Origin: an uncultured virus (IMG/VR IMGVR_UViG_3300032221_000327)
Lineage: Duplodnaviria; Heunggongvirae; Uroviricota; Caudoviricetes
DNA length: 64,000 nt
Virus record (IMG/VR): IMGVR_UViG_3300032221_000327
Direction: 5' to 3' (one strand)
Shown: in pieces, positions 7,836 through 14,178 of the stretch
Numbering within the stretch: position 1 is the first letter of the stretch
Layout: every line of letters begins with the position of its first letter
Notes under the pieces: model-generated
The model's input: only the letters and a program-made list of their open reading frames with translations
Databases searched by the model: none
Told to the model about the DNA's origin: nothing
Translations under genes and position numbers: made by a program

Positions 7836-7855
7836 GCCCGCTCGGCGGGCTTTTT
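7836..7855 (+). terminator. intrinsic terminator-like hairpin
   Basis: GCCCGC-TCG-GCGGGC-TTTTT. Confidence 0.6.
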
Positions 7856-7862
7856 GTGTCTT

Positions 7863-10400
7863 ATGAAGCTCAAGGAAAAGGCTCGTTGCGAAAAGATTGC
7901 TCGCACTGGCAGGGTGCAAGATTGGCTTGATAGCCCCGAAAGCAGACTCCCGGCATCTTGCACTACGTTCATCGTGGAAGATGATATGGAAGGGCCGGAT
8001 GGTATTGAGGCTTCGTGGCGCTACGTCTCCCATGGCCTTCGCAACGCTGCAGGAGTGGCGGTCCACCTCTCCAAACTTCGCCCTCGTGGCACGGACAATG
8101 GCAAAGGACTGATTGCTAGCGGTCCCGTAAGTTTCGCCACCATCTATAGCAAACTTAATGAGATTCTTCGGCGTGGCGGCAAGTTCCGCAATGGTGCTAT
8201 TACACTCCATCTTGATTATGACCATCCTGATGCCATTGATTTTGTTAATGCAACTCGCGCCGAACTTCCCTGGGCTAAGCGTTGTCTAAACGTTGACCAA
8301 CATTTCCTTGACAAAGCATCGCCTGAACTGATTTCCGCTTGCATGAAAGCAATCAGCAATGGCGACCTTTGGCTCACAAAAATGCGCACTGACAAGAATG
8401 GTGCTCGCATCTATGGCAATGTTTGCGTAGCTGGCAGCACTATCATTCTCACCACTGAAGGCCCTCGCAAGATTTCTGATCTCCAAGGCCAAGCCTTCGT
8501 TGCAATTATTAATGGCCAAGAGCATCCTTCTTCTGATCGTGGTGCATGGAGCAATGGCTTCCGTCAAACCTATCTTCTGGAGACCAAAGAAGGCTATTCA
8601 GTTCGGGCCACTGCCGATCATAAAATCATGACGGCCAATGGATGGAAAGAACTTGGCAGTTTGAAGCCTGGTGACAAGATTTCACTCAACAAGCACTGGT
8701 CAGACGAAGCTTGCCAATGGGGCGGCAAGGGTTCTTACGACGAGGGCTGGCTGATTGGCTGGCTTCTCGCTGATGGCACCTACCAGAACGACGAAAATGC
8801 CAAGCTTGATTTTTATGGCAGCAAGCAATGTCTACTAGATGGCGCCCTGAAAAAGCTTGCCACTCTTGACAACTATCTTCAGCGCGACCACTATTCTAAA
8901 CTTCGCACTGGCACTGTTAGCGCATGTGCTGATCGTACAAGCGTAGGAAGCGCAGGACTAGCTCGTGCTGCCATGGAATATGGCATTGCTCGTAGCAATA
9001 AAACCGCCACTGAACTCCTTGAAGAAACTAGCGCAGAGTTTCAGCGAGGATTCCTTGAAGCCTATTTTTCTGCTGATGGCACTGTTAGTGTTGGAGGTGT
9101 GTCGGGCAATGGTAAAAGCATTGGCGTGACGAGCGTCAACTTCCGCAATTTGGAAGTGATGCAACGCATGTTGCTGCGCTTTGGTATTCGCAGTCGTATT
9201 TGGAAAGAGTGCTACAACGGTGGCATGACCATGATGCCAGATGGCAAAGGTGGACAAAAGCTTTATCAAACGCAAAAAGCTTCTCGCCTTGACATTTCTG
9301 GACAAGCCGATTTCCATCGCTTCAACACTTTCATTGGTTTCACTCTTCCCGAAAAACAAGAAAAGCTTGATGCGCTGCTGAGCACTTATCAAAAAGCTGC
9401 CTATGCCAAGCGATATGAAGCCATTGTTTGTTCCATCACGCCTCACGACGTGGAAGAAGTGTTTGATTGCTCCATTCCCACTGCAGGAGCTTTTGATGCC
9501 AATGGCATTTACGTATCGAACTGCTTAGAGGTGCTGCTGCCTCACCGTGGTACATGCCTGCTTGAGCACATCAACATGGGCGCCTGCTCTATTAACGAAC
9601 TTGAAGGGGCATTTGTCGATGGCATGAAAGAGCTTTGCGAACTTCATGGCCGTACTGGCGTGGGAGAAACAGGCGAATATCTGCCACCTGAGAAGGATAG
9701 GCAAGTGGGTCTCGGCATACTCGGCCTCGCCAACTTCCTTTCTATTCACGATATTTCCTACCGGGATTTTGGGGAAGCTCTTGATGCCTTCCTCATGGAT
9801 GATCCACATCCTTGGTGCCACTACTGGGGCGAAAAGCCCGCTGGAAAGGCCGTGAAAGCCCTGGACAAGGCCATTCAAGCCGCTGCGGAAGTGGCTCGTG
9901 AGAACAAGATGGAACGCGCCTTTGCTATTGCCCCTACTGCCTCCTGCTCCTACCGCTACTTAGATGCCCGAGGCTTCACAACTGCCCCTGAAATTGCTCC
10001 TCCCATTGCCCGTATTGTCGATCGGGATAGTGAAACAATGGGCGTGGAACGGTTTGAATATGGGCCAGTGGAAATTGCTGAAGAAGTGGGCTGGGAAACA
10101 TTCCGCAAAGTGGCTGATGGCATTGCGCGGCTTTATTCTCGCACTGGCCTCTACCATTCCTACTCGCTTAACTGGTGGTCGGACATGGTAGTTTGCGACG
10201 AAGCCTTCATTAAAGAATGGCTGGACAGTCCGCAAACTTCTCTTTACTACGCCCTTCAAGTGCAAAGTGGCACCCAAGCCAAGGATGATGTTGGAGTAGA
10301 ATTGGGGGACGACTTCTCCAGTTTCTTTGAGCTGGAGAATGAAGACAAGCCTGAGGCTTGTTCCATTGATGCTGGCTTCTGCGCCGCTTGCTCAGAATGA
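7863..10400 (+). CDS. nrdA: ribonucleotide reductase class I alpha subunit (compact cyanophage type), intein-containing
   Basis: PASC, LSKLRPRG, SGPVSF, split N-V-[intein]-C-L-E motif, IAPTAS, SLYY, C-terminal CAAC; ~480-aa extein. Confidence 0.92.
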   Translation: MKLKEKARCEKIARTGRVQDWLDSPESRLPASCTTFIVEDDMEGPDGIEASWRYVSHGLRNAAGVAVHLSKLRPRGTDNGKGLIASGPVSFATIYSKLNEILRRGGKFRNGAITLHLDYDHPDAIDFVNATRAELPWAKRCLNVDQHFLDKASPELISACMKAISNGDLWLTKMRTDKNGARIYGNVCVAGSTIILTTEGPRKISDLQGQAFVAIINGQEHPSSDRGAWSNGFRQTYLLETKEGYSVRATADHKIMTANGWKELGSLKPGDKISLNKHWSDEACQWGGKGSYDEGWLIGWLLADGTYQNDENAKLDFYGSKQCLLDGALKKLATLDNYLQRDHYSKLRTGTVSACADRTSVGSAGLARAAMEYGIARSNKTATELLEETSAEFQRGFLEAYFSADGTVSVGGVSGNGKSIGVTSVNFRNLEVMQRMLLRFGIRSRIWKECYNGGMTMMPDGKGGQKLYQTQKASRLDISGQADFHRFNTFIGFTLPEKQEKLDALLSTYQKAAYAKRYEAIVCSITPHDVEEVFDCSIPTAGAFDANGIYVSNCLEVLLPHRGTCLLEHINMGACSINELEGAFVDGMKELCELHGRTGVGETGEYLPPEKDRQVGLGILGLANFLSIHDISYRDFGEALDAFLMDDPHPWCHYWGEKPAGKAVKALDKAIQAAAEVARENKMERAFAIAPTASCSYRYLDARGFTTAPEIAPPIARIVDRDSETMGVERFEYGPVEIAEEVGWETFRKVADGIARLYSRTGLYHSYSLNWWSDMVVCDEAFIKEWLDSPQTSLYYALQVQSGTQAKDDVGVELGDDFSSFFELENEDKPEACSIDAGFCAACSE
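8424..9521 (+). mobile_element. intein with LAGLIDADG homing endonuclease (366 aa)
   Basis: Starts CVAGSTIILT, block B ATADHKI, GWLIGWLLADG and GFLEAYFSADG, VFDCSIP, ends GIYVSN before Cys. Confidence 0.93.
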
Positions 10401-10427
10401 CAGTTCTGTTGTTCATTGCTTCCCATG

Positions 10428-10453
10428 GGGCCGAGGTATCGGCCCTTTGTTTT
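10428..10453 (+). terminator. terminator-like hairpin between nrdA and nrdB
   Basis: GGGCCGA-GGTA-TCGGCCC-TTTGTTTT. Confidence 0.55.
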
Positions 10454-10484
10454 CTGTCTTTTCTATTCATCGCACTTACCAACA

Positions 10485-11213
10485 ATGGCCGTTCTTGATT
10501 ATTTTTCTGCAGTGGCACGCAAGCGTCCTTGGCAAGCAGTGCCTGTCACGAAAGGGCAACTGGTGCCCGGTTCCGAAGAAACCATCTACCGTGCATTGGC
10601 CATTCGCCACCTAGAACTGCCCGTGAAGGACATGCTGCTGGAAGGACTGAAGGGCGAGCTGCCTAGCACTCCCGGACTGCTTGAAAGCATTGAAAGCAAC
10701 ATTCTTGACGAAGAACGTCACGATCTGGCCTTGAACTACGTGGCGGCTGCTCATGGCCTCGACGAGAAAGCCGAAGCAGAAGCACTCAAAATTCGTCAAG
10801 CATGGATTGATCACCCTGCTTTTCCCATTGCCAAAGTAGCTGTGCTGGAGCGGAGCATTTTCTTCACCATCCTTCCATTCTTTCGTTTCAATGGTGATAA
10901 AGGACTGCGAACTGTTGCGTCTGATATTTCCAGGGATGAAATATGTCACGCATATTGCCATACGGAAATCTGCAAAGAAGCAGGGGAAAAGTATGGTGAA
11001 AGCCTGAATAAACTTCGCAAGATGACTGCTCTGTGGATTTATGACAAGCTCGGCAAGTCGTCCAATAAGCACTTGAACAAGGACTTCTGGCTCAGGGCAA
11101 GCGACAATCTCTTTTACCATGGCAAAGCTCCTGAACTTACAGAGACAAGAGCATCAGTTATGCCAGCGTTCTTTGAAAGTAATTCACTGAATCTCCCATC
11201 ATACGGTAGGTAG
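10485..11213 (+). CDS. nrdB: ribonucleotide reductase class I beta subunit (ferritin-like)
   Basis: Metal ligands HLELPV, DEERH, VLERS, DEICH; adjacent to nrdA. Confidence 0.85.
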   Translation: MAVLDYFSAVARKRPWQAVPVTKGQLVPGSEETIYRALAIRHLELPVKDMLLEGLKGELPSTPGLLESIESNILDEERHDLALNYVAAAHGLDEKAEAEALKIRQAWIDHPAFPIAKVAVLERSIFFTILPFFRFNGDKGLRTVASDISRDEICHAYCHTEICKEAGEKYGESLNKLRKMTALWIYDKLGKSSNKHLNKDFWLRASDNLFYHGKAPELTETRASVMPAFFESNSLNLPSYGR

Positions 11214-11290
11214 AAATACCTATAATTAATGCAGGGCTGCCCCGATGGATCAGCGCGTGCTATGCTTGCCGGGACTCGGGTTGTCAATCA

Positions 11291-11321
11291 AGCCTCGTCG
11301 TTGGCGCGACGGGGCTTTTTC
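11291..11321 (+). terminator. intrinsic terminator
   Basis: AGCCTCGTCG-TTGGCG-CGACGGGGCT-TTTT. Confidence 0.7.
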
Positions 11322-11382
11322 ATGGCTAGTCTTGCCGTGACAGAGGGCAAGCCCCTGCTTGCACGCTTGCTCCGCTCTCTTG

Positions 11383-11391
11383 TGCTACAGT
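11383..11391 (+). promoter_or_regulatory. extended -10 promoter candidate
   Basis: TG-C-TACAGT just upstream of the first hairpin of the structured region. Confidence 0.45.
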
Positions 11392-11396
11392 TCCGA

Positions 11397-11660
11397 AGGC
11401 GACCGGAAGGCCGCCTCTAAGTCCCCGGCTCGCAGCCTGGGCATTTCCCTCCATTGCTCCGTCAATGGAGAGCAGCCAGTTCAGGAACCTGCGTCGTCAG
11501 GGTGTGGTCTTGCTGGTCTGTGTTCAAATCCCGTGTTTGCGGGTCGGGAGGACGCTCCCGCTAGTTTGGTCCGCTAGTGCGCTTTCCCACTTGGCAAGCG
11601 CAAAGGACTAGCTCCCCTAAGCCTCTCAACGATGCTCAAACAGGGGGACTTCTGGGAGGT
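11397..11660 (+). ncRNA. candidate ~260-nt multi-helix structured RNA
   Basis: At least seven consecutive stems plus an 8-bp long-range closing helix 11419-11426/11644-11651. Confidence 0.6.
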
Positions 11661-11913
11661 GCGTGAAGGCGCTCGCTCATGGTTCGATGCCATGGCTTCC
11701 CTTTCGTGGTACGATGGCGGCGTCCATGCTCTCATTTCCATGCAGCACCAGAACGAGCCCGCAAGGGTGATGGCATTCGTGCCAGCTAGAGGCCCGTGGT
11801 GGTTAGTGGGCGCTCGCCCCGAATCAGGCCGCATCGGCCGTCTTCGCTGGTTTAATTCAGACCAAGAAGAAGGCGTGTTCGGTCGCGTGTTCTGGGGGAG
11901 GGATGCAGTATGA
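11632..11913 (+). CDS. hypothetical protein (start uncertain)
   Basis: Stop overlaps next start (ATGA); 5' end overlaps the structured region. Confidence 0.45.
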   Translation: MLKQGDFWEVREGARSWFDAMASLSWYDGGVHALISMQHQNEPARVMAFVPARGPWWLVGARPESGRIGRLRWFNSDQEEGVFGRVFWGRDAV

Positions 11914-12272
11914 ACTACAAATTCAGCGTTAGCGACATAGAGCACTTTGCCGAGGCAAAAGTGGGGATTGATGGCTGGAAGGCTTACCAATGGGAGCGGG
12001 CCGACGAAGATTCAATCATTACTGGCGACATTCCCCATGGCGTCTACAAAACGGGCAAACGCAAAGGCAGGCCCAAGTTCATTGGCAATGGCCGGAAGGT
12101 GGTGGTGACAAACGCCGAAATGCAGGCTCATGCTGCCGCCTGGGAAGCTGCGACTGGCAAATGCTGGGACTGTAAAGGCACTGGGCAAACGTTGGCTGGC
12201 TGGAGCAAGGCGGAAGGCACTCGCTACCGCACATGCCAGCGATGCAATGGTTCCAAGGAGGCGCAACGATGA
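11910..12272 (+). CDS. protein with DnaJ-type zinc finger
   Basis: CWDCKGTG…CQRCNGS. Confidence 0.7.
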   Translation: MNYKFSVSDIEHFAEAKVGIDGWKAYQWERADEDSIITGDIPHGVYKTGKRKGRPKFIGNGRKVVVTNAEMQAHAAAWEAATGKCWDCKGTGQTLAGWSKAEGTRYRTCQRCNGSKEAQR

Positions 12273-13652: not shown

Positions 13653-13884
13653 CACGCCCATCAGGGAGCCTTGGAACGCTTCCATCCATCAGATATTGCG
13701 TGCCATTGACAACCACACTGCGCTCTACCTGCACACTCGCCTGCCGTGGCACCTAGAAAAGGCTGCGGCATTGCGAGCTTATGTGCATGAGCTGAAAACC
13801 TACATCCATGCAGAAGAAAGGGCCCGTCTGAGCGGGCCCCTGCAACCATCACACCAGGCAGTAACTGACGCGAATGTTGGCTGA
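13630..13884 (+). CDS. hypothetical protein
   Basis: 84-aa helical ORF. Confidence 0.6.
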   Translation: MDDRRTFNTPIREPWNASIHQILRAIDNHTALYLHTRLPWHLEKAAALRAYVHELKTYIHAEERARLSGPLQPSHQAVTDANVG

Positions 13885-13998
13885 CTGCGACTGCAGCAGG
13901 CGAGCAGCCTTCCGCAAGCGTTGTTGAATCAAGGCAAGGTGGTTCATTGTGGCCTCCATGTCCCGGCCCCGTTCCCTGCCGGCGATCATGCGCTCCTG

Positions 13999-14178
13999 CT
14001 ACAGCGGGAGTGAACGTGCCAACAGACTAGCATCATCCTCTGCCACGCCAAGCCAATGCTCCAGCGCACGGGCTGCTAGTCCCGCCTCGATGCTGCGATG
14101 GCCATGGCGCCTGCTGGAAGCCTCCAGCGCACCTTCTGCGGCTGCAATGGCAGCCTGCGGATCATCTTCCCTAACCAT
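13999..14178 (-). CDS. small hypothetical protein
   Basis: ATG 14178 overlapping upstream minus-strand stop. Confidence 0.45.
   Translation of the reverse strand: MVREDDPQAAIAAAEGALEASSRRHGHRSIEAGLAARALEHWLGVAEDDASLLARSLPL

Follow-up and report, generated by a model that had tools for sequence, protein, structure and literature searches.

An orphan abiF-family hairpin between a structured RNA and a tRNA-like minihelix in an S-CBS4-like cyanophage, a possible mimic of the AbiF antitoxin

Positions 11613-11649 (+) of the window, the 64,000-nt stretch of uncultured viral DNA analysed here (IMG/VR IMGVR_UViG_3300032221_000327), form a hairpin that is a member of the abiF RNA family (Rfam RF03085). 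It is an orphan, with no toxin gene within the window. On its 5′ side lie ~215 nt of structured RNA, and on its 3′ side a 48-nt tRNA-like minihelix. In C. difficile the abiF motif RNA acts as an antitoxin, binding AbiF and neutralising it (PMC12373285), and two reviews cite the same role for Prevotellaceae AbiF. We propose that the phage makes a mimic of the AbiF antitoxin, which would be cut from a longer precursor by tRNA-processing enzymes; we give this explanation about an even chance of being right.

The window carries a tailed-phage genome, with portal, tape measure, tail lysozyme, terminase, RNR, ThyX and Sak-type annealing protein genes. The best cultured match of the portal was Synechococcus phage S-CBS4 (60.3% identity over 90% of the length), and the order RNR alpha, RNR beta, phosphoesterase and then opposite-strand terminase is common to both genomes; ~23 IMG/VR loci also have the RNR-to-terminase order. 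The window phage is classed here, from these comparisons, as an S-CBS4-like cyanosiphovirus. The RNA locus is placed between the RNR beta gene (10416-11213; phrog_6799, E 1e-101), with its terminator, and a run of small same-strand genes. The syntenic 9.5 kb of S-CBS4 contained neither the abiF hairpin nor the upstream RNA, and a blastn search of cultured phages with 11230-11960 returned no match. Two other features of the window were recorded. The RNR large-subunit gene (7854-10400, +) is split by an intein that contains a LAGLIDADG homing-endonuclease domain. A glutamine-II riboswitch at 13961-14019 (−), which scored 34.3 bits against a cut-off of 33, overlaps with the beginning of a 46-aa ORF (13849-13989, −) and fits a cyanobacterial host; it was found again in 8 of 20 related loci scanned, as well as in L172.

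The match of the hairpin to RF03085 scored 42.8 bits against a cut-off of 37, with an E of 1.7e-4 over the whole window, and covered the model in full (1-37). The hairpin has a 6-bp outer stem, a 3-bp inner stem, the loop CCUCUCAACGAUG and a 3′ CAAA bulge, and AAGCCUCUCAACGAUGCUCAAA is identical between the window and the RF03085 consensus. The first-pass annotation, whose description of the sequence at 11383-11660 matches the letters, had offered two alternative pairings at this 3′ end; CCCCT/AGGGG turned out to be the stem of the Rfam motif, and the other, CCTCTC/GGGAGG, was not supported (see below). When 11200-12000 was compared with Rfam 15 at E values up to 10, abiF was accompanied only by two chance-level matches (isrJ and SgrS), and none was obtained to known self-cleaving ribozymes, riboswitches, manA, wcaG, tmRNA, 6S or SRP RNA. 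ARAGORN and Rfam 15 thus agree with the earlier opinion that the region is not a tRNA, tmRNA, SRP, 6S or hammerhead RNA. That it belongs to no known family is correct for 11398-11612 (~215 nt), which had no Rfam 15 match even at E up to 10, and incorrect for the 3′ 37 nt. The same division applies to the idea of an undescribed phage ncRNA: a conserved structured RNA is present, and its 3′ hairpin had already been described as RF03085. The motif was first described in PMC5737381, the main text of which does not name abiF.

In ~130 IMG/VR stretches (an estimate; 119 were retrieved) the 22-nt core of the loop (11619-11640) is the same letter for letter. The stems around it vary in their letters and keep their complementarity, with covariation across viral loci. 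A letter-perfect core together with compensatory stems indicates purifying selection rather than decay. The core is held by 77 cultured phage records, with hosts from several phyla. Mycobacterium phages contribute 65 records with the core, and it was also seen in Arthrobacter, Aeromonas and Rhizobium phages; in several cultured phages the hairpin stretch is annotated inside a hypothetical protein.

No Abi_2 domain (PF07751) was detected among the 86 ORFs of the window, and a six-frame tblastn of the window with six Abi_2 proteins gave nothing (best E 0.23). The position of abiF upstream of an Abi_2 gene is an association and not part of the Rfam model, and the co-located, co-transcribed toxin gene by which type III toxin-antitoxin systems are recognised is missing from the window. 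The complete genomes of three cultured phages that carry the hairpin (Redno2, S-SZBM1 and S-CREM1) likewise lacked Abi_2, and so did two large viral contigs with it. Of 80 viral loci with flanks of 2.5 kb, only 4 had Abi_2 beside the hairpin, as did 1 of 39 loci with short flanks; the viral contigs with Abi_2 right after the hairpin are L012, L039, L060, L079 and L118. These few contigs are what would be expected if the phages had once carried the whole AbiF module, lost the toxin and kept a decaying RNA. Such a relic is very improbable in our judgement, given the unchanged core, the compensatory stem changes and a regular siting beside tRNAs.

Bacterial RNase P needs no more of its substrate than an acceptor stem plus a T arm. 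The tRNA-like minihelix at 11654-11701 (+), detected with an acceptor/T-arm script, starts 4 nt 3′ of the abiF hairpin and is of this substrate type, with a 7-bp acceptor stem (GGGAGGU/GCUUCCC), a 5-bp T stem and a 7-nt UUCRAnn loop (CAUGG-UUCGAUG-CCAUG); one small hairpin replaces the D and anticodon arms. It folds at −20.7 kcal/mol (z −2.0) and is a candidate substrate of RNase P. The same minihelix was found in L034, L041, L075 and L214, with compensatory changes in both stems and always 3′ of an abiF-type hairpin, so that the 48-nt type stands behind such a hairpin in 5/5 cases with the upstream side visible. By blastn, the similarity between the window and L034 ends at 11701, the last base of the minihelix. 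The GGGAGG that had been assigned to a pseudoknot with CCTCTC is the acceptor strand of this minihelix; the proposed pairing is 81% paired in a subset of relatives and is lost where true tRNAs follow. ARAGORN called neither a tRNA nor a tmRNA in the window, and the Rfam tRNA model RF00005 had no match there; the tRNA or tmRNA identity considered for 11383-11660 was ruled out by ARAGORN.

In other viruses the hairpin is often next to a true tRNA. Of 99 distinct viral loci scanned with ARAGORN, 21 have a tRNA that starts 3-8 nt 3′ of the hairpin, 7 have one that ends 3-11 nt 5′ of it, and 37 have a same-strand tRNA within 500 nt. The stricter acceptor/T-arm script found an element starting no more than 12 nt after the hairpin in 28 of 100 loci; among random positions the figure was 34 of 2000. 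No tRNA adjoins the hairpin in at least half of the viral loci, and tRNA punctuation is therefore frequent rather than universal. In S-CREM1 the annotated order is tRNA-Asn, abiF and, 4 nt later, tRNA-Gly, in S-SZBM1 the hairpin is followed by tRNA-Ala, and in mycobacteriophage Redno2 the nearest annotated tRNA is ~270 nt from the hairpin. Many related loci, L021, L035, L061 and L069 among them, have tRNA-like genes of ~64-69 nt just 3′ of the hairpin, in which the anticodon loop is of the CAU type and the T loop reads GUGCAAU; most of these are called neither by ARAGORN nor by Rfam.

Stable RNAs other than tRNAs are known inside a phage tRNA operon, namely the species 1 and 2 RNAs of T4. In S-CREM1, wcaG, manA and abiF RNAs lie between tRNAs, and the hairpin was called an 'sRNA' of unknown role (PMC9964418). 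Over positions 9745-10643 of that genome (L203), tRNA-Met, -Leu, -Asn and -Gly are interspersed with the three RNAs at spacings of 0-48 nt; manA directly adjoins a tRNA on either side, a layout suggesting that tRNA processing releases wcaG, manA and abiF. A structured RNA a few nucleotides from the 5′ end of a tRNA or tRNA-like element would have its ends set by tRNA-processing enzymes. The window differs from the T4 and S-CREM1 operons in that the tRNA is shrunk to a 48-nt minihelix, and its upstream RNA does not match manA or wcaG at E up to 10.

The intrinsic terminator after RNR beta (11286-11317, +), with a stem at 11298-11312 and a T run, is present as claimed in the first-pass annotation. 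A longer stem at 11290-11317 aligns to the terminator part of isrJ with 15 bits, a structural match only. It is followed at 11340-11380 (+) by what may be a decayed copy of the 5′ hairpin module of relatives, an uncertain assignment: 11339-11373 is similar to L025 by blastn and to L123 and L061 by eye, and 11340-11380 folds no better than shuffled sequences (z +0.5). This segment may be part of a longer transcript from a degenerate promoter-like site upstream, at ~11325-11334. The extended −10 promoter-like element TGcTACAGT, which had also been noticed earlier, is read directly at 11383-11391 (+); a consensus promoter scan misses it because a −35 element is absent. Elements of the form TGnTAnnnT were seen by eye, and left uncounted, at the corresponding place in relatives. 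The similarity of L034 and L120 to the window starts at 11398 (blastn), and the RNA probably starts near this position. None of the public RNA runs listed contained the stretch, and four runs yielded only short DNA contigs of relatives.

The upstream RNA is predicted to be a series of separate hairpins. The first of these, at 11397-11416 (+), has a GGAA loop and folds at −10.2 kcal/mol (z −2.5); an A·C mismatch in the window is an A-U pair in L120, and the hairpin is held by only two related sequences. Hairpin M1 (11423-11441, +), obtained by folding, places CCC/GGG around GGCT/AGCC, and relatives have CCCG...CGGG with variable inserts there, as judged by eye. Both the GNRA hairpin and the GGCT/AGCC helix had been listed before and are present. 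Hairpin M2 (11449-11470, +) has the conserved loop UGCUCYGUCR and a fold z of −4.9. At least six stem versions surround this fixed loop among 23 distinct sequences, and 4 of 8 pairs were changed on both sides in alignment A1 (see below), in full support of the earlier proposal of a hairpin at 11449-11470. The 'compound arm' drawn at 11473-11520 was borne out for the outer stem of arm M3 (11475-11517, +; stem 11475-79/11513-17), which in A1 is paired at 90%, two of its five pairs having changed on both sides; its inner part, a hairpin of CCTG (11488-91) and CAGG (11498-11501) in the window, is variable and differs in length among relatives.

The 3′ part of the upstream RNA contains two adjacent hairpins (11530-11560, +) and a pseudoknot module (M6; 11562-11609, +). 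The former, CCCGT/GCGGG (hp1, 11530-43) and CGGGAG/CTCCCG (hp2, 11545-60), had both been predicted correctly: across 33 sequences hp1 is 97.0% paired with 3 of 5 pairs changed on both sides, and hp2 is 94.8% paired with 4 of 6. The pseudoknot module consists of hairpins at 11562-76 and 11578-11602 and a loop-to-tail helix, 11568-72/11605-09. The second hairpin, which contains the previously noted TGCGC/GCGCA stem (11578-82/11598-11602), is supported in the same 33 sequences and has the conserved loop CCCAYUUGGCAA. The pseudoknot helix is 100% paired in them, with two covarying pairs that alternate as GC/AU and as GC/GU/AU.

These values derive from two alignments. Alignment A2 comprises 33 distinct sequences over 11530-11609, with four helices plus the pseudoknot; 95.1% of its cells are paired, compared with 30-47% when the partners are slid, and 12 of 25 pairs are changed on both sides. 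Alignment A1 comprises eight sequences across the whole RNA, in which 11 helix segments (8 elements) were counted; 96.0% of cells are paired, compared with 36-49% with slid partners. The counts are from kin sequences in alignments of our own choosing, and gauge the conservation of pairing, not a probability. The folding energy of the region was less informative. The whole 278 nt folded with a z of −1.61, slightly better than shuffled controls (12 of 200 as good), and the minus strand with a z of −1.44. The whole-region fold by itself makes a weak case, and the comparative evidence decides.

The same comparison disfavours three helices of the earlier structure, all of them in conflict with elements that are better supported. 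The long-range helix 11419-26/11644-51, with 78% pairing in eight sequences, competes with the stem of the abiF hairpin; GCTAGTT/GACTAGC, with 68% pairing, gives way to the hairpin at 11562-76 plus the pseudoknot; and the third is the CCTCTC/GGGAGG pairing already dealt with.

We also analyzed how far the upstream RNA extends beyond the window. By blastn against the hairpin-bearing loci, the region 5′ of the hairpin is also conserved, in a mosaic pattern. L034 and L120 are 95% identical to the window over 11398-11701 and unrelated outside; L041, L015, L028 and L027 are similar to 11510/11526-11659, and others only to 11442-11483 plus the hairpin. Placed side by side, the relatives have the promoter-like TGnTAnnnT, then variable hairpin modules, then the abiF hairpin; in L022 the promoter is followed directly by the abiF hairpin, and the window has nearly the full module set. 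A covariance model of the pseudoknot module (R1, built from 28 sequences) scored 85.5 bits on the window and located the module in 13 of 81 hairpin-holding sources, nine of them with at least 85 bits. In L124, L132, L146 and L183 an intrinsic terminator comes straight after the hairpins and pseudoknot, and there is no abiF hairpin. The upstream RNA is thus separable; it may act as an independent sRNA, serve as a 5′ body that stabilises the transcript, or supply further protein decoys. In L183 this RNA stands just 5′ of a portal-type gene (DUF4055), and the contig was binned with a Synechococcus MAG.

No Rfam family matched the pseudoknot module in six loci that hold it (E up to 1), or the upstream modules in 20 related loci at gathering scores. 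An exact pattern of the module, run against 185,579 species genomes, gave 24 stretches; 22 were chance occurrences in coding DNA and the remaining two are phage-like contigs (L172 and L183). Model R1 had one match in 151 genomes of the likely host order, the phage-like contig already found. A pattern for M2 matched 16 of 401 genomes, and none of the 17 matches listed resembled M2 by eye. On these comparisons, 11398-11612 is regarded as a conserved non-coding structured RNA of a phage-only family absent from Rfam 15. The density of helices and the pseudoknot had suggested a self-cleaving ribozyme or another catalytic RNA. Such a function is scarcely credible here, as no ribozyme family matched at E up to 10 and the gain and loss of helix modules among relatives does not fit a single catalytic core.

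The 'ORF 11632' of the first-pass annotation, which would begin within the abiF hairpin, bears on whether the RNA acts in cis. Its homologue in L034 begins M-AVMWYDGSVHAL, aligned to window residues 23-41, and this start corresponds to window residue 22-23, at the in-frame ATG 11692. Together with the L034 similarity over 11398-11701, the L034 protein start implies that the first 20 codons of 'ORF 11632' are RNA; the AUG in the hairpin loop belongs to the RF03085 consensus. It is more likely that the gene (73 aa; 11692-11913, +) starts at 11692, within the 3′ strand of the minihelix. Its stop overlaps the next start (ATGA at 11910-11913), and its product had no Pfam or PHROG family match. In L034 (2584-3373, at window 11702-11705), an insert of ~800 nt stands precisely where the tRNA-like element meets the small gene; it includes a 218-aa ORF with no Pfam family.

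A cis-acting leader, an attenuator or riboswitch controlling the downstream genes, would account for an RNA sited between a promoter and same-strand small genes, and for the riboswitch-like layout of pseudoknot module and terminator in L124, L132, L146 and L183. The module at 11562-11609 itself resembles H-type pseudoknotted riboswitch aptamers, with two hairpins, a covarying loop-to-tail helix and, in those four relatives, a terminator after it; unlike them, it matches no riboswitch family and has no known conserved downstream gene or candidate ligand. We consider a leader function distinctly unlikely. Between 11612 and 11692 the window has no terminator except the T arm itself, the gene that follows differs among relatives (and is displaced by the insert in L034), and modules are gained and lost. 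Moreover, the neighbours of the hairpin are often tRNAs and not genes, the ORF starts outside the hairpin, and riboswitch families gave no match. The ribozyme-or-switch function and the cis-control of 'ORF 11632' suggested earlier are both disfavoured on these grounds.

The proposed mimic requires an AbiF target in the host. An Abi_2 protein was found in 12 of 301 genomes (~4%) of the order of a Synechococcus MAG, the likely host order, and one picocyanobacterial Abi_2 protein matched the solved AbiF 8VZ6 over its full length (E 2.5e-33). Rfam abiF was found at cut-off in none of 12 picocyanobacterial Abi_2 loci, and above cut-off in none of 151 genomes of the order, with a single sub-threshold match of 33.6 bits. 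A related hairpin is nevertheless present: in seven of the ten host Abi_2 loci listed, a promoter is followed by a hairpin with the flanks of the phage version (AACAC...UCAC). These hairpins share with it the single strands AGCCUCU and AUGCYCAAAC and have an extra small hairpin in the loop (loci L189-L194 and L197, in genomes G066, G170, G290, G296, G133, G271 and G205); the Abi_2 loci L188, L195 and L196 have differing upstream sequence. The loop of the host hairpin differs from the phage version, so that cross-binding is an assumption. Against the mimic count the absence of the canonical hairpin beside host AbiF in the loci and genomes scanned, and the scarcity of Abi_2, which in only ~4% of the sampled genomes offers few targets to an element this well conserved. 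The viral loci with no adjacent tRNA, and the distant tRNA of Redno2, also weigh against it.

The hairpin could instead be a stable small RNA of the phage tRNA operon that is unrelated to AbiF, with a loop read by a universal partner (a processing enzyme, the ribosome or RNA polymerase) which AbiF antitoxins merely resemble. Its place in the S-CREM1 tRNA array beside wcaG and manA, its occurrence in phages of unrelated hosts and the non-canonical hairpins of picocyanobacterial AbiF would all be explained in this way. We know of no other partner of an abiF-family hairpin. The loop and bulge are those that define the AbiF-associated family, and members of the family were shown to bind AbiF directly (PMC12373285). 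On balance we think an AbiF-unrelated RNA improbable.

In the antitoxin mimic that we favour, the phage's own extended −10 promoter would drive a non-coding RNA of ~300 nt (~11398-11701) after the terminator of the RNR operon. The transcript would be laid out as independently folding hairpins plus one pseudoknot in its 5′ two thirds, then the abiF hairpin, then the minihelix. RNase P would cut at the 5′ end of the minihelix and so give the abiF hairpin a defined 3′ end, and hairpins between true tRNAs in other phages would be released by the same RNase P route. The freed hairpin is predicted to bind the host AbiF HEPN ribonuclease as the host's own antitoxin RNA does; AbiF would then stay inhibited when host transcription stops, and abortive infection would fail. 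Transcription, processing, AbiF binding and the anti-defence effect are thus predictions of the model.

The model can be set beside known systems. In stems, loop and bulge the window hairpin is like the abiF RNAs RCd22 (C. difficile) and Prevotellaceae AbiF ncRNA, the antitoxins of AbiF/Abi_2 HEPN type III systems. It differs in being a single copy, where RCd22 has two, and in having ~215 nt of structured RNA 5′ and a tRNA-like element 3′ instead of a terminator and the toxin gene. RNA anti-CRISPRs are phage-borne solitary CRISPR repeats, and the proposed logic is like theirs, in which a phage copy of a host guide RNA occupies the defence protein. Phage PhiTE is described as escaping ToxIN via a pseudo-ToxI RNA (PMC3475682). 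By analogy, the phage copy of a host inhibitory RNA would here too occupy the defence protein; unlike both of these, it would target AbiF, is a hairpin and not a repeat array, is tied to tRNA processing, and is known here from sequence.

A broader and more tentative reading, which we consider possible, is that toxin-less AbiF-antitoxin hairpins serve as RNA anti-defence in phages of many hosts (cyanobacteria, mycobacteria, Arthrobacter, Aeromonas and Rhizobium), placed within tRNA operons for release by RNase P and the tRNA 3′ enzymes; in S-CBS4-like cyanophages they would be fused to a new modular hairpin/pseudoknot RNA, and its shuffled modules may be further RNA decoys aimed at other defence proteins that bind RNA. 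AbiF is considered in the reviews to be the ancestor of Cas13, and its small RNA a forerunner of the CRISPR RNA. If the reading is correct, the widespread toxin-less phage copy would be a natural RNA inhibitor of the AbiF/Cas13 nuclease lineage and a second case of RNA antitoxin mimicry, after pseudo-ToxI. The regular siting beside tRNAs would be a simple route for phages to make defined small RNAs, and the upstream part is a structured RNA family not in Rfam 15, whose pseudoknot is well supported. None of the papers found links the phage hairpin to tRNAs or counter-defence; the primary Prevotellaceae AbiF paper may treat phage copies. Cultured systems with the hairpin are S-CREM1 and S-SZBM1 on Synechococcus CB0101 and the cluster mycobacteriophages on M. 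smegmatis.

Variants of the hairpin were also observed in related phages. L131, L135, L137, L139, L141, L144, L145, L150, L152 and L159 have the usual stem, flanks and CAAAC bulge, with an extra loop hairpin of 10-50 nt. Most of these loop-expanded abiF-type hairpins would score below the Rfam model, and a variant abiF-type hairpin in L151 scored 40.9 bits.
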